64,000 nt of DNA from an uncultured Bdellovibrionales bacterium (GCA_964398485.1 CAYNMD010000001.1:5072-69071); one strand, 5' to 3'. Shown: positions 7,823 through 32,379, counted from the stretch's first letter. Made by a program: numbers and translations. The notes: generated from the sequence alone by a model not told the origin.

Positions 7823-7896
7823 GGGCGATTAGCTCAGGTGGTTAGAGCGCGTCACTGATAATGACGAGGTCCCAAGTTCGAGTCTTGGATCGCCCA
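7823..7896 (+). tRNA. tRNA-Ile (anticodon GAT)
   Basis: Cloverleaf folded by hand: acceptor GGGCGAT/ATCGCCC, anticodon stem CGTCA/TGACG, loop CTGATAA, T-arm CCAAG-TTCGAGT-CTTGG; no encoded CCA. Confidence 0.85.
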
Positions 7897-7928
7897 CATC
7901 TGGAAGGCAGCGTCCAGAAAGTATATAC

Positions 7929-8002
7929 AGCGGGGTAGAGCAGTCTGGCAGCTCGTCTGGCTCATAACCAGAAGGTCGGTGGTTCAAATCCACCCCCCGC
8001 AA
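7929..8002 (+). tRNA. initiator tRNA-fMet (anticodon CAT)
   Basis: Near-identical architecture to bacterial initiator tRNA (GCGGGG..GAGCAG..CTCATAA..GGTTCAAATCC..CCCCCGCAA); 1:72 mismatch (A x A), A11:U24 in the D-stem. Confidence 0.8.
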
Positions 8003-8072
8003 CAAACTTCGCATTCAGCAGGTGACAGATACTGAGGCATCTTCTCTTGCTTGGCTAAGTTGGGTATAATTT

Positions 8073-8146
8073 GCCAGGGTAGCTCAGTTGGTTAGAGCAC
8101 GGGACTCATAAGCCCGGGGTCGAGAGTTCGAATCTCTCCCCTGGTA
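8073..8146 (+). tRNA. tRNA with CAT anticodon (elongator Met or Ile-lysidine type), atypical
   Basis: Acceptor GCCAGGG/CCCTGGT with G1.U72 wobble, D-arm GCTC-AGTTGGTTA-GAGC, loop CTCATAA, anticodon stem CGGGA/GCCCG with an A31.G39 mismatch, T-arm GAGAG-TTCGAAT-CTCTC. Confidence 0.6.
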
Positions 8147-8162
8147 CTGGGCGAAAATTGAA

Positions 8163-8226
8163 TATCACGGGGGCGTACCCACCCGAACGACTGAGAGCCG
8201 TTCAGTCGGGCGGGGCTCAGCTGGCT
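8163..8226 (+). repeat. partial duplicate of the tRNA-Asp 5' region (ATATNACGGGGGCGTA...GCTCAGCTGG) interrupted by a 37-nt hairpin-forming insert
   Basis: Direct comparison with the start of the intact tRNA-Asp at 8457-8482: about 25 nt identical if the insert CCCACCCGAACGACTGAGAGCCGTTCAGTCGGGCGGG is removed. Confidence 0.6.
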
Positions 8227-8472
8227 ATGTACACTGTTTATGTTTTACAAGATAATCGGGGAAGGTTATACAAGGGCATGACCAATAACCTGGTTCGACG
8301 ACTTGCAGAACATAAAGGGGGTACAACAAAAACTACGCGTTCTATGAAGGATCTGCGTGTTGTATACTCCGAAGAGCATCCCGACAGAGTGTCAGCAAGA
8401 AAGCGAGAGATGTATTTAAAGTCTGCTGCTGGGAGGAGGTTTTTGAAGAAAATTTTATATACGGGGGCGTAG
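8227..8472 (+). CDS. GIY-YIG nuclease superfamily protein (UPF0213/YhbQ-like)
   Basis: YTVYVLQDNRGRLYKGMTNNLVRRLAEHK GIY-YIG motif; ATG at 8227 preferred over the tool's TTG at 8158; stop codon TAG overlaps the first 10 nt of tRNA-Asp. Confidence 0.7.
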   Translation: MYTVYVLQDNRGRLYKGMTNNLVRRLAEHKGGTTKTTRSMKDLRVVYSEEHPDRVSARKREMYLKSAAGRRFLKKILYTGA

Positions 8473-8539
8473 CTCAGCTGGTTAGAGCGACTGCCTGTCA
8501 CGCAGTAGGTCGCCGGTTCGAGTCCGGTCGTCCCCGCCA
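8463..8539 (+). tRNA. tRNA-Asp (anticodon GTC), CCA encoded
   Basis: Acceptor GGGGGCG/CGTCCCC (one G.U), D-arm GCTC-AGCTGGTTA-GAGC, anticodon stem ACTGC/GCAGT, loop CTGTCAC, T-arm GCCGG-TTCGAGT-CCGGT, discriminator G + CCA. Confidence 0.85.
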
Positions 8540-9406: not shown

Positions 9407-11008
9407 TTACTGCGTGTTGGTTGAGGCGTAGTACGCGTTGCAACCGACAGCGTACTCGTTCAGCGTGAGACCTTCCATGAGTACGAGGCCTAGCTCAGCA
9501 ACCGTACTGGCGCTGCTGCCGTTGTAGGACACCTGAAAATGAAGGTGTGTACCGGTTGAACTCCCTCCGGTACTACCAACCGTTCCCAGTTGATCCCCCT
9601 GGTTCACTGCCCCAGAAGTTATGAGGCTTTGAGCTGTCATGTGGCCATAAAGAGTCTTGTAGCCATTGCCATGGTTGACCCTTACCCAATGACCGTAGCC
9701 AGATGCGTCGTAACCGTAGTCACCGGTATCGACCGTACCACTTGCCGCAGCATAGATCGGCACATTGCTCTCCGAGCCATTCTGTTGGGAATAGTCGTCG
9801 AAGTCGAGCGAATAGTATCCGCTACCCGTATGGTAGGTATCGGTACCCCCGCCACAGAACACGGTACCGCCAGCTTGAACTGTCAACAGCCAGTTCTTTC
9901 CACCAGGCAGAGGAAGTTTCATAGCCAGAAGACTGCGGACCGGCCAGACATTCCTTGACACTGATTTGTTTTCGGCTGCCTTGTGACCAGCAGCAACACC
10001 AGAGGACCATGCCTTGGTGGGCGTACCCACCACTGTGGTCGATGACCACCGCGTACTTGTTGTATTGGTGAATGGGTGCCCAGTAGTCAGAGCTGGATTC
10101 AAGTTCTCGATATCCAACAAACTTCTCAGGTCAACGATGTTGGGAAGACGCCAGTCGGTGTAACCGAAGTTGGCATTACTGCCCGTATTCATGTTGGCCA
10201 CATAGTCCAAGGCCTGTTGCCAAGTGCCGCCGGAAAGACTGGAATTCTCCGTCCACATGAGACCAGTGAATCGATCAGTCACCGTGCCATTGCCATGGTT
10301 GATGAACCGAGATACAGGCGGGGTAACGCCAACTTCTAGGTCACCGTCATCTCGGGTGGCATAGCTCGTTGACTGACCAGTCTTTTGAAGGGTTATCTTC
10401 CCTCCACTTCCTGTCCTTACTGGCCACACATACCGTGTGCCCGCCTTACTGCCCGTTGCGAGACCTCCTGTTTCAAATTGGGCAAGCCATGCACCGCCAC
10501 CTGGACTACTTGCCCAGCCCGAGAAGGTGGTGGTGGAGGTGTAGTAATAGATAGTAGATCCGGACTGAACATTCGTAAATGGATGTCCACTAGTGATTGC
10601 GGGACCTGTACTTTCATGATTCACGAGACTTAGCAACTCAACCACATTCGGGAGTCGCCAGTCGGTGTAACCGAAGTTGGCATAGGTTCCTGCATTCATG
10701 CCCGCCACATAGTCAAGCGCCTGCTGCCAAGTTTTCGTGCCTGCAGGAAGGTTGGCACTCTGTGACCACATGAGGCCAGTCATGTTGTCCGTGACCGTGC
10801 CGTTCCCATGGCTCGTGAAGCGAGGGCTTACCAAGGGGACGCCAGCCAGGGTGGCGCCGTCGTGTCCGGTACCGGCGCAAGCAATGGATGACCCATATGC
10901 GTCGTAACAGGAAGTCTGGCCGGTTCTTGGCAGTTCCACTGCCCAAGATGAGATCATCAAGCAGGCAAGAAACCAGCCGATGACAAGGGTGCCGATACGA
11001 TTTCTCAT
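9407..11008 (-). CDS. secreted protein with two DUF1566 (Lcl C-terminal-like) repeats and a C-terminal M23 peptidase domain
   Basis: Signal peptide; two copies of ...HGNGTVTD..TGLMW...GYTDWRLPN(V/I)VEL..L; C-terminus HxxxD...GSTGGSSTGTHLHFQV typical of M23/LytM; GC about 56%, higher than the genome. Confidence 0.75.
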   Translation of the reverse strand: MRNRIGTLVIGWFLACLMISSWAVELPRTGQTSCYDAYGSSIACAGTGHDGATLAGVPLVSPRFTSHGNGTVTDNMTGLMWSQSANLPAGTKTWQQALDYVAGMNAGTYANFGYTDWRLPNVVELLSLVNHESTGPAITSGHPFTNVQSGSTIYYYTSTTTFSGWASSPGGGAWLAQFETGGLATGSKAGTRYVWPVRTGSGGKITLQKTGQSTSYATRDDGDLEVGVTPPVSRFINHGNGTVTDRFTGLMWTENSSLSGGTWQQALDYVANMNTGSNANFGYTDWRLPNIVDLRSLLDIENLNPALTTGHPFTNTTSTRWSSTTVVGTPTKAWSSGVAAGHKAAENKSVSRNVWPVRSLLAMKLPLPGGKNWLLTVQAGGTVFCGGGTDTYHTGSGYYSLDFDDYSQQNGSESNVPIYAAASGTVDTGDYGYDASGYGHWVRVNHGNGYKTLYGHMTAQSLITSGAVNQGDQLGTVGSTGGSSTGTHLHFQVSYNGSSASTVAELGLVLMEGLTLNEYAVGCNAYYASTNTQ

Positions 11009-13114: not shown

Positions 13115-13149
13115 GCAGCGTAGATAATTTTTTTTGGCGGGAATGTCTG

Positions 13150-13190
13150 TATAAAAAAGAAAACGGGCACTGTTCGTTGAACAGTGCCCG
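13150..13190 (-). terminator. rho-independent terminator for the minus-strand GC-rich gene
   Basis: Perfect 12-bp stem CGGGCACTGTTC/GAACAGTGCCCG with a 4-nt loop, followed on the minus strand by a U-rich tract (plus-strand A-run 13152-13163). Confidence 0.6.
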
Positions 13191-13209
13191 GGCGGGTCAG
13201 GTGTGACCC

Positions 13210-14016
13210 TTACTTGTTGGAGCGGCGTCCGCTGCGGCGAGCGGTACCGCCGAGAGCGAACAGGGCCAGTGCGGCGAGCGACAGCGAGGCTGGCGTCGGC
13301 ACGGACGAGGTCACCGTGTTGGACCAGTGGGCCGTGTAGTCCTGGCATTTCGCACCGGCGATGCTCGTGTCACCGCAGAAGTTGTACGCCTGCATGATGG
13401 TGGCCGAGAAGCCGGTGGAGCCGTTGATGGTGTTGTCCGTGTACTTCACCACGCCGTTCACCCGGTACTCGTAGGCTGAGCCAGTGAAGCTGATCGAGAG
13501 ATCGGTCCAGGCGTCGTAGTCGATGGCCACGCCGAGGTCCACCCACGCCAAGCCTTCCCAGATGCGGAGGCGCGCGCCGCCGTCACCGTAGTTGGTGAAG
13601 CCGATGATGGGGTAGTCAGTGACGGCTGAACCATTGGTCATGACGCCCCACATGTCGGTGCGGACGTGCCCGTTCTGGGTATTGGCCCACTCCTCGGGGA
13701 TCCAGAGCGCTGCCGAGAGCACCGATCCAGCACCGCCCGAGATGGCATGTTGCTGCCCCTGGGTGTTGTAGAAGGTGCTCTGGTAGGCGGCCGGGCGGTT
13801 GCTCAGCCCATCGGCTTCGGAGATGCCGATGGCGAGGACATCGTTGCGGCCCTGGTAGGTGCCGATGTCACCGAAGCTGTGCGGGTCGTAGCGGTCCGTC
13901 ACCCAGCCCACGGGGGCGTTGTCGAAACTCGGCATCACCAGCGCCGCCTGTGCGGGGAGAATCCCCAGCAAGAGACCAGTCAAGCCGGCCAGGAAAGTCA
14001 GAAACCTCTTCGTCAT
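13210..14016 (-). CDS. secreted protein with PEP-CTERM-like C-terminal sorting signal; very GC-rich
   Basis: ATG at 14014-16 with RBS ACAGGAG (the tool's start is an upstream TTG); signal peptide ...GILPAQA; C-terminus VPTPASLSLAALALFALGG-TARRSGRRSNK (PxP motif + TM + Arg-rich tail); GC about 65% with near-saturated GC3. Confidence 0.55.
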   Translation of the reverse strand: MTKRFLTFLAGLTGLLLGILPAQAALVMPSFDNAPVGWVTDRYDPHSFGDIGTYQGRNDVLAIGISEADGLSNRPAAYQSTFYNTQGQQHAISGGAGSVLSAALWIPEEWANTQNGHVRTDMWGVMTNGSAVTDYPIIGFTNYGDGGARLRIWEGLAWVDLGVAIDYDAWTDLSISFTGSAYEYRVNGVVKYTDNTINGSTGFSATIMQAYNFCGDTSIAGAKCQDYTAHWSNTVTSSVPTPASLSLAALALFALGGTARRSGRRSNK

Positions 14017-14069
14017 GTCGCGAACTCCTGTTGTCAACGAAACACACCCACCACGGGTGCGTTCTGAGG

Positions 14070-14098
14070 AGGATAGAATATTTTTGTACTTTTGTCAA
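14070..14098 (-). promoter_or_regulatory. sigma70-like promoter (TTGACA-N17-TATCCT) for the PEP-CTERM-like gene
   Basis: Read on the minus strand: TTGACAAAAGTACAAAAATATTCTATCCT, about 50 nt upstream of the ATG. Confidence 0.4.
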
Positions 14099-14143
14099 CC
14101 AATTCTTGCGAAGAATCCTTTTTGGAAAACGAATGAGTGATCT

Positions 14144-14806: not shown

Positions 14807-14823
14807 ACTATGATGGAGAAAGG

Positions 14824-14897
14824 TGGACCGTATCGGATTCGAACCGATGACCCCCGCTTTGCAAAAGCGGTGCTCTAGCCAACTGAGCTAACGGCCC
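14824..14897 (-). tRNA. tRNA-Ala (anticodon TGC)
   Basis: Reverse complement GGGCCGTTAGCTCAGTTGGCTAGAGCACCGCTTTTGCAAAGCGGGGGTCATCGGTTCGAATCCGATACGGTCCA; G3.U70 Ala identity pair; anticodon loop TTTGCAA. Confidence 0.85.
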
Positions 14898-31084: not shown

Positions 31085-31468
31085 ATGCGTTCACGTTCTC
31101 TCCGCCAGCTCAGGAAGCTTCTCGATGGGTGGTCAGTGCCACATTTTCTTTTTGGAGTAGTAGTAGCTACGGCGGCTATTGCTTTTGAGTGGTCTCTGGT
31201 AGTAGCTTTTGTCACGATGCTCGTCGTAGCAGTTGCTTGGGAGTATTTTGAGAGACGTATCAATATTAAGGAAGCATTCGGAAATCCGTGGATGGATATT
31301 GTTCTTCCTATCATGGCTTTTGGCCTCACACTTCTTTTGGTTGATCAGAAGCCACTTCACCAAGAGGAGCATATTGGCCTTTTTGTTTGTGCAACCGGCC
31401 TTTTTTTGTTTGTGAATGGAGCTGCTTGGAAGGCTCGTTTTGAACGTGATCGAGATTTTTTGAGCTAA
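31085..31468 (+). CDS. hypothetical membrane protein
   Basis: 3-4 TM helices; no domain. Confidence 0.35.
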   Translation: MRSRSLRQLRKLLDGWSVPHFLFGVVVATAAIAFEWSLVVAFVTMLVVAVAWEYFERRINIKEAFGNPWMDIVLPIMAFGLTLLLVDQKPLHQEEHIGLFVCATGLFLFVNGAAWKARFERDRDFLS

Positions 31469-31510
31469 GGCCGCGACCAGATCGCTTATTGAGGGTAGGG
31501 GATGATATTC

Positions 31511-31539
31511 TTGACATAAATTAGGTATTTGTGTACACT
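31511..31539 (+). promoter_or_regulatory. sigma70-like promoter TTGACA-N17-TACACT
   Basis: Sequence motif upstream of the GC-rich ORF. Confidence 0.35.
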
Positions 31540-31632
31540 TCGCAATTGTCTACGGTCAGGCATGACCAAAGAACGTGCAGAAGGGGTCCACCGGATCTCG
31601 CACGCGCCCCAACCCAATGAAGGAGGCACCCA

Positions 31633-31982
31633 TGCAACAACCTCAAGCCCAGATGACCGCCGGTGGCAAGCCCTCGCGCCGCAGCGGCCGTGGCAGCAAG
31701 CGCTTCACGATTGTCCGCAATGGCCAGAAGATCGAGGGCCTGAACGAGAGCCAGCTGCGCGGCCTGATCGACTGGGAGCACTGCGACGGCGAGCACAAGG
31801 GCGAGAAGGTCGCAAGCCTGTTCATCGGTCAGGCCGGTGACGACCAGATCGCCATCGCTCAGGGCGACGACAAGCGTGGCATCACGCTCTACAAGCCGGC
31901 CGAGGTGTTGGTCGCCATGAGCCGCCTGGACGCCCTGTGCCACAAGGTGTTCGACAAGCAGCGCGCCGCCGGCAAGATCTGA
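31633..31982 (+). CDS. hypothetical protein encoded by an extremely GC3-rich ORF (likely horizontally acquired)
   Basis: ATG at 31633 preceded by AAGGAGG; 116 aa; almost every codon ends in G/C, unlike all neighbouring genes. Confidence 0.5.
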
Positions 31983-32379
31983 TCGCTGGCGCGCCGCCGG
32001 CTACAACTGAAACTGCTCACCGCGGAACCCACGGTTGAGCCCAACCCACCCGAGCATCCAGAAAGGAGATGACTCGGGTGAATTATTTTTTAGAAAAATT
32101 TACAACAAAAAAACTGACCAAAAGCCAGTGATGATTTCTCTTATGCTGCTTGAAAAACCGAAAGCCCTCAATGCGGGAGGATGGGTCTGGATCCCCGTAA
32201 ATGAGCTTGTCGGAAAAATTCATTTTCCCGGTAAACCAGGTGGGTTCCAATTTTCGCCCTCCGTTCTGAAGGCTCTGGGGTCATTATAGCACGTTTTTAT
32301 TTCTGTCAATAGCCTGATCAAAAAATTTTGATAAATGAGGGGGCGCTCGATGCTATACTACAGTTACTCATGCTGCAAC

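Follow-up and report, generated by a model that had tools for sequence, protein, structure and literature searches.

Near the middle of the 64-kb stretch of DNA analysed here (64,000 nucleotides, called the window below) lies a short segment whose base composition departs sharply from its surroundings, and this raises the question of what the segment encodes, how it came to its place and why its composition differs. A reading made from the sequence of the window (the sequence-only reading) had proposed a single short gene of foreign-looking composition, a description that GC content and codon usage support, and had taken the gene to be recently captured and derived from a phage or plasmid, neither of which held up. 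The overall explanation that we consider probable is a self-contained, moron-like accessory gene cassette of ~610 bp carried in Moranbacteria chromosomes.

A GC-rich islet holds one complete gene

In 200-bp segments, the GC content rose from ~0.44-0.46 to 0.64-0.67 across window positions 31545-32060, whose edges are approximate, and fell back afterward, which confirmed a compositional islet at the place where the sequence-only reading had put it. Over 450 bp, the top GC value of the window (0.658) was found at the islet, exceeding the window mean (0.457, sd 0.043) by about 4.6 sd. The islet contains an ORF on the plus strand at 31632-31982, which encodes 116 aa in 351 nt including the stop codon; the end and the length had been called correctly, whereas the start lies one base before the proposed 31633. 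GC1, GC2 and GC3 of this ORF were 0.655, 0.42 and 0.888, so that GC3 is indeed very high but falls short of the ~95% that had been claimed, and the string of G/C-ending codons quoted in support was correct on reading the sequence. Among the other ATG-initiated ORFs of at least 100 aa in the window, GC3 ranged from 0.28 to 0.65 with the sole exception of an ORF at 13210-14016 on the minus strand (GC3 0.87); a composition unlike that of all neighbours therefore stands for ORFs of this size, apart from that of this second islet. The elevation was not confined to the ORF, as the UTRs were likewise GC-raised. The genes on both sides encode membrane proteins, as had been stated, namely, a 127-aa transmembrane (TM) protein upstream and an SBF-like transporter downstream. 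The islet is a genuine gene unit of ~610 bases with its own promoter and terminator.

The cassette has the layout of a single transcription unit

By analogy with an exact 616-bp indel between two relatives, L022 and L023, the whole cassette from promoter to terminator was placed at approximately 31494-32101 on the plus strand, the strand of all its parts described below. A consensus scan and conservation located a sigma-70-type promoter at 31511-31539, composed of TTGACA (31511-31516), a 17-nt spacer and TACACT (31534-31539), just as the sequence-only reading had seen it. Such a match by itself is at chance level (one found versus 1.1 expected from shuffles); both hexamers and the 17-nt spacing were kept in eight of eight alleles of the family, with a variable spacer sequence and the common form TTGACA-N17-TA(C/A)(A/T)(C/G)T. 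Around the predicted transcription start, unchanged columns of the eight-allele alignment defined an invariant 11-mer, CAATTGTCTAC (31543-31553); CAATTG, a palindrome, lies within it, and the 11-mer may act as an operator or as a 5'-end motif. Only one exact copy of it occurs within the 64-kb window. A regulon with a common CAATTGTCTAC was considered and rejected, the motif not being enriched (three matches with at most one mismatch versus 0.93 expected).

The leader, ~90 nt long, carries two hairpins. Hairpin 1 (31554-31567; GGTCA-GGCA-TGACC) folds separately in each allele, and its arms vary compensatorily among alleles (GGTCA/TGACC, AGCTA/TAGCT and CGGTCC/GGACCG). Hairpin 2 (31574-31604), borne out by a formal pair count, has a closing stem CGTGC/GCACG and an inner 7-bp stem GGGGTCC/GGATCTC; its 12 pairs were paired in all 96 of 96 cells (100%), with two-sided changes in 7 of the 12. 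In the controls, slid alignments paired 17-55% of cells and 0 of 500 shuffles reached the observed covariation score. Furthermore, the G-U pairs of hairpin 2 are compatible with the plus strand only. At the gathering score, no Rfam family matched the leader, the 3'UTR or the element downstream of the cassette, hits at E <= 5 being at chance level only, and no known riboswitch or cis-regulatory RNA family in Rfam matched the 5'UTR.

The leader is followed by a Shine-Dalgarno (SD) sequence, AAGGAGG (31620-31626), read directly in the sequence with the ATG 5 nt further on, in agreement with the earlier proposal; every allele has AGGAGG or GAGGAG with an equal spacing to the ATG. The CDS (31632-31982) was assigned from codon-position GC, the eight-member alignment and AF2 modelling. 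Per-allele folds revealed two hairpins in the 3'UTR. Hairpin a (31985-32001) immediately follows the stop codon and overlaps a direct repeat, D1, while hairpin b (32016-32039), formed by CTCACCGCGG...CCACGGTTGAG, occupies the same place in every allele with different arms (GGCGTG/CACGCC, CCGCGG/CCGCGG and CCGTGG/CCACGG). The unit ends in an intrinsic terminator (32047-32091), read in the sequence and folding in each allele, in which a CCCGAG/CTCGGG hairpin at 32047-32080 precedes a U-run; the stem CCCGAG/CTCGGG is identical in seven alleles.

Two further observations concern the ORF. Its last codons (31961-31982; GCGCGCCGCCGGCAAGATCTGA) recur in the 3'UTR at 31989-32010, 28 nt downstream and with 86% identity, and the copy overlaps hairpin a; the repeat may have been left by a duplication of the C-terminus or by a shift of the stop codon. 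ORF-wide mRNA structure beyond that given by composition was also sought and rejected, the native minimum free energy (MFE) lying at z -1.5 to +1.7 relative to synonymous-codon permutations in the eight alleles. Since the MFE was no stronger than that of the codon permutations, selection for a specific mRNA fold does not explain the high GC content.

The cassette occupies one site in Moranbacteria chromosomes

A word-indexed search of 5.8 billion protein clusters returned the protein itself only, phmmer over 1.84 billion representatives added two true relatives, and a profile search enlarged the family to eight clusters. All eight lie at one site, in the order DUF1761 gene, 127-aa gene, cassette and a conserved RNA-like element, with the SBF gene usually next. 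The cassette is positioned past the stop codon of the 127-aa membrane-protein gene and before the original terminator of that gene; farther upstream are DUF1761 and DUF4395 proteins, and a pseudouridine synthase, membrane proteins, a transporter and a hydrolase are neighbours in the locus. One member was found in the NCBI MAG GCA_008012185.1 (Candidatus Moraniibacteriota/Moranbacteria), and the relatives of the flanking gene in GTDB are likewise named Moranbacteria, a phylum within Patescibacteria/CPR. No family member outside the Moranbacteria locus was present among ~15 billion proteins, and protein or leader scans of 185,579 species genomes, IMG/VR, GenBank phages and PLSDB plasmids yielded none. 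On the sequences searched, the cassette is known only from one chromosomal site of the Candidatus Moranbacteria group (CPR). Four MAGs that share this Moranbacteria locus (L023, L024, L026 and L028) have GTDB records that read "uncultured Bdellovibrionales bacterium"; given the synteny with Moranbacteria MAGs, that name looks like a mislabel.

Empty sites were identified in L010, L023 and L028, where the 127-aa gene is separated from the conserved element by ~100 bp or less. The filled L022 and the empty L023 differ by a single 616-bp indel, which may be a gain or a loss, and align at 98.8% identity in the flanks (173 bp to the left and 640 bp to the right). The edges of this indel lie 17 nt upstream of the -35 box and ~15 nt past the U-run of the terminator; therefore, the unit that is present or absent is exactly one transcription unit. 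The junction shows 1 nt of microhomology and no terminal repeats, and neither target-site duplications nor inverted repeats were found flanking the cassette. The cassette is accessory, being missing from near-identical as well as from more distant relatives.

Two other elements were observed downstream of the cassette. At 32113-32129, a hairpin (ACTGGC-TTTT-GGTCAGT) with A/T runs on both sides stands directly after the 127-aa gene in the empty-site relatives, and it looks like a bidirectional terminator common to the 127-aa gene and an RNA on the minus strand. The latter, a candidate conserved rod-like RNA of ~125 nt at ~32153-32276 (minus strand), has an extended -10 promoter (TGnTATAAT/TATACT) and a U-run and was found in nine relatives, cassette-free ones included. 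Compensatory changes occur in 4 of its 35 predicted pairs, several G-U pairs fit the minus strand only, and no Rfam family, SRP and 6S included, matched it.

Alleles are mosaics of segments with different relatives

Pairwise identities along the cassette were highly uneven. L011 and L014, whose 127-aa proteins are 89% identical, share 94% identity in the promoter, 62% from leader hairpin 2 to the ATG, 63% in the ORF, 68% in the 3'UTR and 79% in the terminator. For L014 and L008, the corresponding values are 66%, 91%, 75%, 64% and 88%, and for L008 and L022 they are 88%, 60%, 65%, 89% and 100%. Similarly, L009 and the window are 91% identical in the leader and 98% in the terminator, and the ORF proteins only 42-47% (depending on the alignment). 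Because the promoter, the leader plus ORF, and the 3'UTR plus terminator have different nearest relatives, the alleles are recombinant mosaics. From the mosaic alleles and the filled/empty polymorphism together, we infer exchange by homologous recombination through the conserved flanks and internal segments. The genome encodes DprA, consistent with DNA uptake. The cassette has no recombinase of its own, and no integrase was found among the Pfam annotations of neighbouring genes. The idea that the cassette protein evolves faster than its neighbours was rejected, as it applied to some pairs only and the window versus L011 was ordinary (about 70% identity versus 50-78% for flanking proteins); the striking discordances in divergence are better explained by allele exchange.

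Divergence is saturated but the GC content is maintained

All alleles have a GC3 of 0.83-0.93 and a GC content of 0.64-0.65, against 0.44-0.52 in their flanks. Synonymous differences among the eight alleles (pS) were 0.33-0.64, and the saturation expectation was 0.44 +/- 0.06 when synonymous codons were resampled under the codon usage of the family itself. Between the window and L011, four flanking genes had 50-78% amino acid identity and a pS of 0.73-0.79, which is saturated, and the cassette protein had about 70% identity and a pS of about 0.405. As the latter is near the expectation of 0.44, the cassette is saturated too, within an alphabet confined to G and C. Polarised third-position changes comprised 14 S>W, 2 W>S, 14 S>S and 0 W>W; with such heavy turnover between G and C and few changes to A or T, GC3 has stayed high despite much change. 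Saturated synonymous sites that nonetheless retain a GC3 of 0.83-0.93 indicate that the GC-richness is old and maintained, and the GC content of the cassette is thus held by some force. The mild excess of S>W over W>S could reflect slow amelioration instead of a true equilibrium. Since no high-GC donor was found, composition is the only pointer to a foreign origin. The literature on GC content and horizontal transfer in Patescibacteria and on PEP-CTERM in CPR yielded nothing specific.

Under the accessory-cassette explanation, the unit would be transcribed as one structured monocistronic mRNA and would be gained, lost and reshuffled by homologous recombination in the conserved flanks, probably following DNA uptake. 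Its GC-richness was probably foreign initially and would now be held by a force on composition, whether selection acting on the mRNA or on codon content or a bias of another kind.

Alternatively, the cassette could be imported repeatedly, or converted, from an unsampled high-GC reservoir, so that the copy in each genome is young and the divergence resides inside the reservoir. Candidates for this reservoir are Moranbacteria with a high GC content, a mobile element carried by Moranbacteria and the bacterium that hosts them; taken jointly, we consider them unlikely. Such a source would account for a cassette GC content of 0.64-0.65 whatever the host GC (0.44-0.52), as well as for the mosaicism and the presence/absence pattern, and Moranbacteria of higher GC do exist, such as L027 at 0.56. 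However, L027 has no copy near the homologous site, all the members that were found share one lower-GC syntenic context, and nothing was detected in the 185,579 species genomes, IMG/VR or the ~15 billion proteins.

GC-biased gene conversion (gBGC) at a recombination hot spot could, in principle, have raised the GC content in place with no foreign origin, and recombination is evident at the locus; the joint elevation of UTRs and ORF, the lowered synonymous change and the heavy G<->C turnover also fit such a process. We nevertheless regard it as quite unlikely, because exchange through the flanks puts heteroduplex in the flanks, which are not GC-rich, and because the compositional edges are sharp and coincide with the transcript ends. 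In bacteria, the effects of gBGC on GC3 are expected to be far smaller than a shift from 0.4 to 0.9, and the second islet of the window has GC-rich foreign homologues.

What the sequence-only reading had suggested was essentially one recent transfer event, with a high-GC phage, plasmid or bacterium as the donor and too little time elapsed for amelioration. Foreign-looking composition and codon usage, presence or absence between near-identical genomes, and the proteobacterial PEP-CTERM homologues of the second islet all speak for it. If it held, all carriers should have near-identical alleles and the donor should be detectable, and both predictions fail: the eight alleles at one site are 42-69% identical in amino acid sequence and synonymously saturated, and still have a GC3 of 0.83-0.93, and no homologue was found outside the locus. 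The promoter and UTRs, moreover, are conserved inside the lineage. A recent capture is accordingly very unlikely, and a phage or plasmid derivation finds no support in IMG/VR, GenBank phages, PLSDB, PHROGs, PADLOC or the ~15 billion proteins, where no relative was found.

The product defines an uncharacterised protein family

The ORFs of the family encode 108-122 aa, and the eight clusters have 42-69% amino acid identity to the window protein. Gaps within the ORF of the eight-member alignment are whole codons, and the SD sequence, the ATG and the stop codon are conserved, so that the coding status proposed earlier is borne out in the homologues. Between closer alleles, pN/pS was ~0.5-0.6 (window versus L011, 0.223/0.404; L021 versus L022, 0.052/0.086). 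AF2 modelling with the 8-sequence alignment gave a pLDDT of 79, with 85-94 over most of residues 22-116, compared with a pLDDT of 45 from the single sequence. In this model, residues 1-22 form a disordered basic tail rich in Arg and Gly (SRRGRGG), which is followed by a domain of the predicted order b1-b2-a1-b3-b4-b5-b6-a2. Residues W48, H50, C51, G53 and H55 are invariant and make up a W-x-H-C-x-G-x-H motif. Neither a signal peptide nor a TM segment was read from the 116-aa sequence.

By these sequence features, the locus is most probably protein-coding. The opposite reading, that it specifies a structured non-coding RNA and that the ORF is a mere by-product of high GC content, draws on the covarying UTR hairpins and on the fact that long ORFs occur in several frames of high-GC DNA; it is barely plausible in view of the classic coding pattern of codon-position GC (0.66/0.42/0.89), the whole-codon gaps with conserved start, stop and SD sequence, the confident AF2 model obtained from eight sequences, and folding of the ORF that does not exceed what composition gives.

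The 116-aa protein had no significant match in Pfam, PHROGs, PADLOC, NCBIfam or a PDB sequence profile search, the best profile match being the papillomavirus E2 DNA-binding domain at a nonsignificant E of 0.28. Known anti-phage defence and anti-defence families (PADLOC and PHROGs) gave no match at E <= 1 above noise. Foldseek against PDB and BFVD returned no significant fold match, and in an hhalign comparison with human PC4 the probability was 0.09%. The predicted fold of the cassette protein bears a weak resemblance to the b4-a single-stranded nucleic-acid-binding fold of PC4, Sub1, Pur-alpha and YdbC. Tentatively, and from just two features, the basic tail and the weak fold resemblance, the protein would most likely be a small nucleic-acid binder whose target may be its own structured leader. 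Under the accessory-cassette explanation, the product would be a predicted cytoplasmic protein in which a disordered basic tail is joined to a compact domain of beta-sheet and helices; it would most likely bind nucleic acid or its own leader and may serve as a small regulator or a conflict-related factor. The roles named in the sequence-only reading, an anti-defence factor, a toxin or a regulator, may also apply. With its confident predicted fold, the invariant W-x-H-C-x-G-x-H and the conserved structured leader, the cassette defines an uncharacterised family.

The cassette is recovered from independent assemblies

The islet sequence was recovered in four contigs from four independent samples and assemblies (100% identity in L001, L003 and L004, and 99.9% in L002), with both islet junctions spanned by L003 and L004. 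An assembly chimera or contamination, as might be suspected from the sharp change in composition and from the low-coverage contig L001, which departs from the window left of 31442, is already refuted by these four independent assemblies agreeing at 99.9-100% and by the two that cross both junctions, and with the same site filled by diverged alleles in seven other genomes, its probability is negligible.

In L001, positions 1-432 to the left of the cassette are unrelated DNA of 52-60% GC, joined at window position 31442. This left part codes for an 86-aa lipoprotein-like ORF, and the join falls 27 nt before the stop codon of the 127-aa gene. The left part is either a chimera or a second genomic context of the cassette.

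Comparison with known systems

The concept of phage "morons" reportedly goes back to Hendrix and colleagues. Like a moron, the cassette is one gene between its own promoter and terminator, both inside the indel unit; it separates features that lie side by side in a close relative (L022 versus L023, with L010 and L028 also empty); and it differs in base composition from its surroundings and has no recombinase of its own. Unlike a phage moron, it resides in a CPR chromosome among housekeeping and membrane-protein genes, with no match in IMG/VR, PHROGs or GenBank phages, its site holds deeply diverged mosaic alleles, and its atypical composition persists and does not mark a recent arrival. By analogy, the phage moron is the closest known concept to the cassette.

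Classical horizontally acquired islets and ORFans undergo amelioration (Lawrence and Ochman 1997, cited in PMC12455944). The cassette resembles them in its atypical GC content and codon usage, its patchy distribution and the lack of detected homologues, but it has not ameliorated despite saturating synonymous divergence, and its unit is exactly one transcript. In contrast to a classical genomic island, its borders lack an integrase and direct repeats, the microhomology there amounts to a single nucleotide, and no tRNA gene lies within 16 kb. Integron gene cassettes are promoterless ORFs with attC sites, arranged in arrays next to an integrase, whereas this cassette has a promoter, is solitary and lacks flanking repeats. 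Diversity-generating retroelement (DGR) targets, finally, have template and variable repeats, adenine-specific changes and a reverse transcriptase, whereas the differences among cassette alleles extend over the whole ORF and affect all bases. A DGR-like repeat was sought and rejected, as a second copy of any part of the cassette is absent from the 64-kb window.

As a gene of foreign composition that has not ameliorated, the cassette provides a clean natural case that challenges the equation of atypical GC content with recent transfer, and, for bacteria that have not been cultivated, it offers a measure of how selection or biased conversion acts on synonymous sites. It also suggests how accessory genes may turn over in genome-reduced CPR bacteria without mobile-element machinery, whole transcription units and sub-modules being swapped through conserved flanks.

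A second islet shows similar behaviour

The second GC-rich islet of the window (~13116-14110, minus strand; ORF 13210-14016, GC3 0.87) encodes a secreted protein of 268 aa that carries a signal peptide and ends in a degenerate PEP-CTERM-like tail; the gene is preceded by a TTGACA-N17 promoter of its own and followed by a GC-rich terminator. Hundreds of homologues were found, proteobacterial PEP-CTERM proteins among them, which makes its foreign origin evident. Compared with L019, whose UvrB is 98.5% identical, the second islet showed 82% identity, a pN/pS of 0.52 versus 0.02-0.07 in the flanks, and a lower dS. Homologues also occur as GC-rich single-gene islets elsewhere, in L020 (GC3 0.77) and in L029, a Paceibacterota MAG (GC3 0.80). 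Hence, like the cassette, this family consists of single genes with a GC3 of 0.77-0.87 in genomes of 44-49% GC; unlike the cassette, it is large, includes proteobacterial PEP-CTERM members and appears in varied contexts across CPR lineages. The second islet thus shows that what was observed at 31.5-32.1 kb is shared by more than one gene. An AGAAC motif common to the leaders of both islets was rejected, as it is not retained in L019, a close relative.

Two such GC-rich units are thus present in the 64-kb window, and the PEP-CTERM one recurs as an islet in other CPR phyla. It is conceivable, although speculative and unlikely, that CPR genomes carry a class of "GC-locked" single-gene cassettes that are exchanged, and reshuffled module by module, by transformation and homologous recombination, have an actively maintained GC content and encode lineage-specific proteins for dealings with hosts or phages. 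If so, the class would consist of promoter-to-terminator units of ~0.6-1 kb that keep a high GC content over the long term inside genomes of 44-50% GC, and their products would serve the dealings of an episymbiont with its high-GC host or with phages. Compositional amelioration would then be useless for dating transfers in these genomes, and the cassettes would offer a handle on symbiosis or conflict effectors.

Other features were observed in the same part of the window. A tRNA-Ala gene at 14822-14897 lies ~700 bp from the second islet, and a tRNA cluster at 7823-8539 comprises Ile-GAT, two Met-CAT and Asp-GTC. At 9407-11008 on the minus strand, a gene for a 533-aa protein with Lcl_C and Peptidase_M23 domains has a raised GC content (GC2 0.54, GC3 0.57); an ~85-bp repeat lies within it, its copies located near 10142-10225 and 10650-10732.
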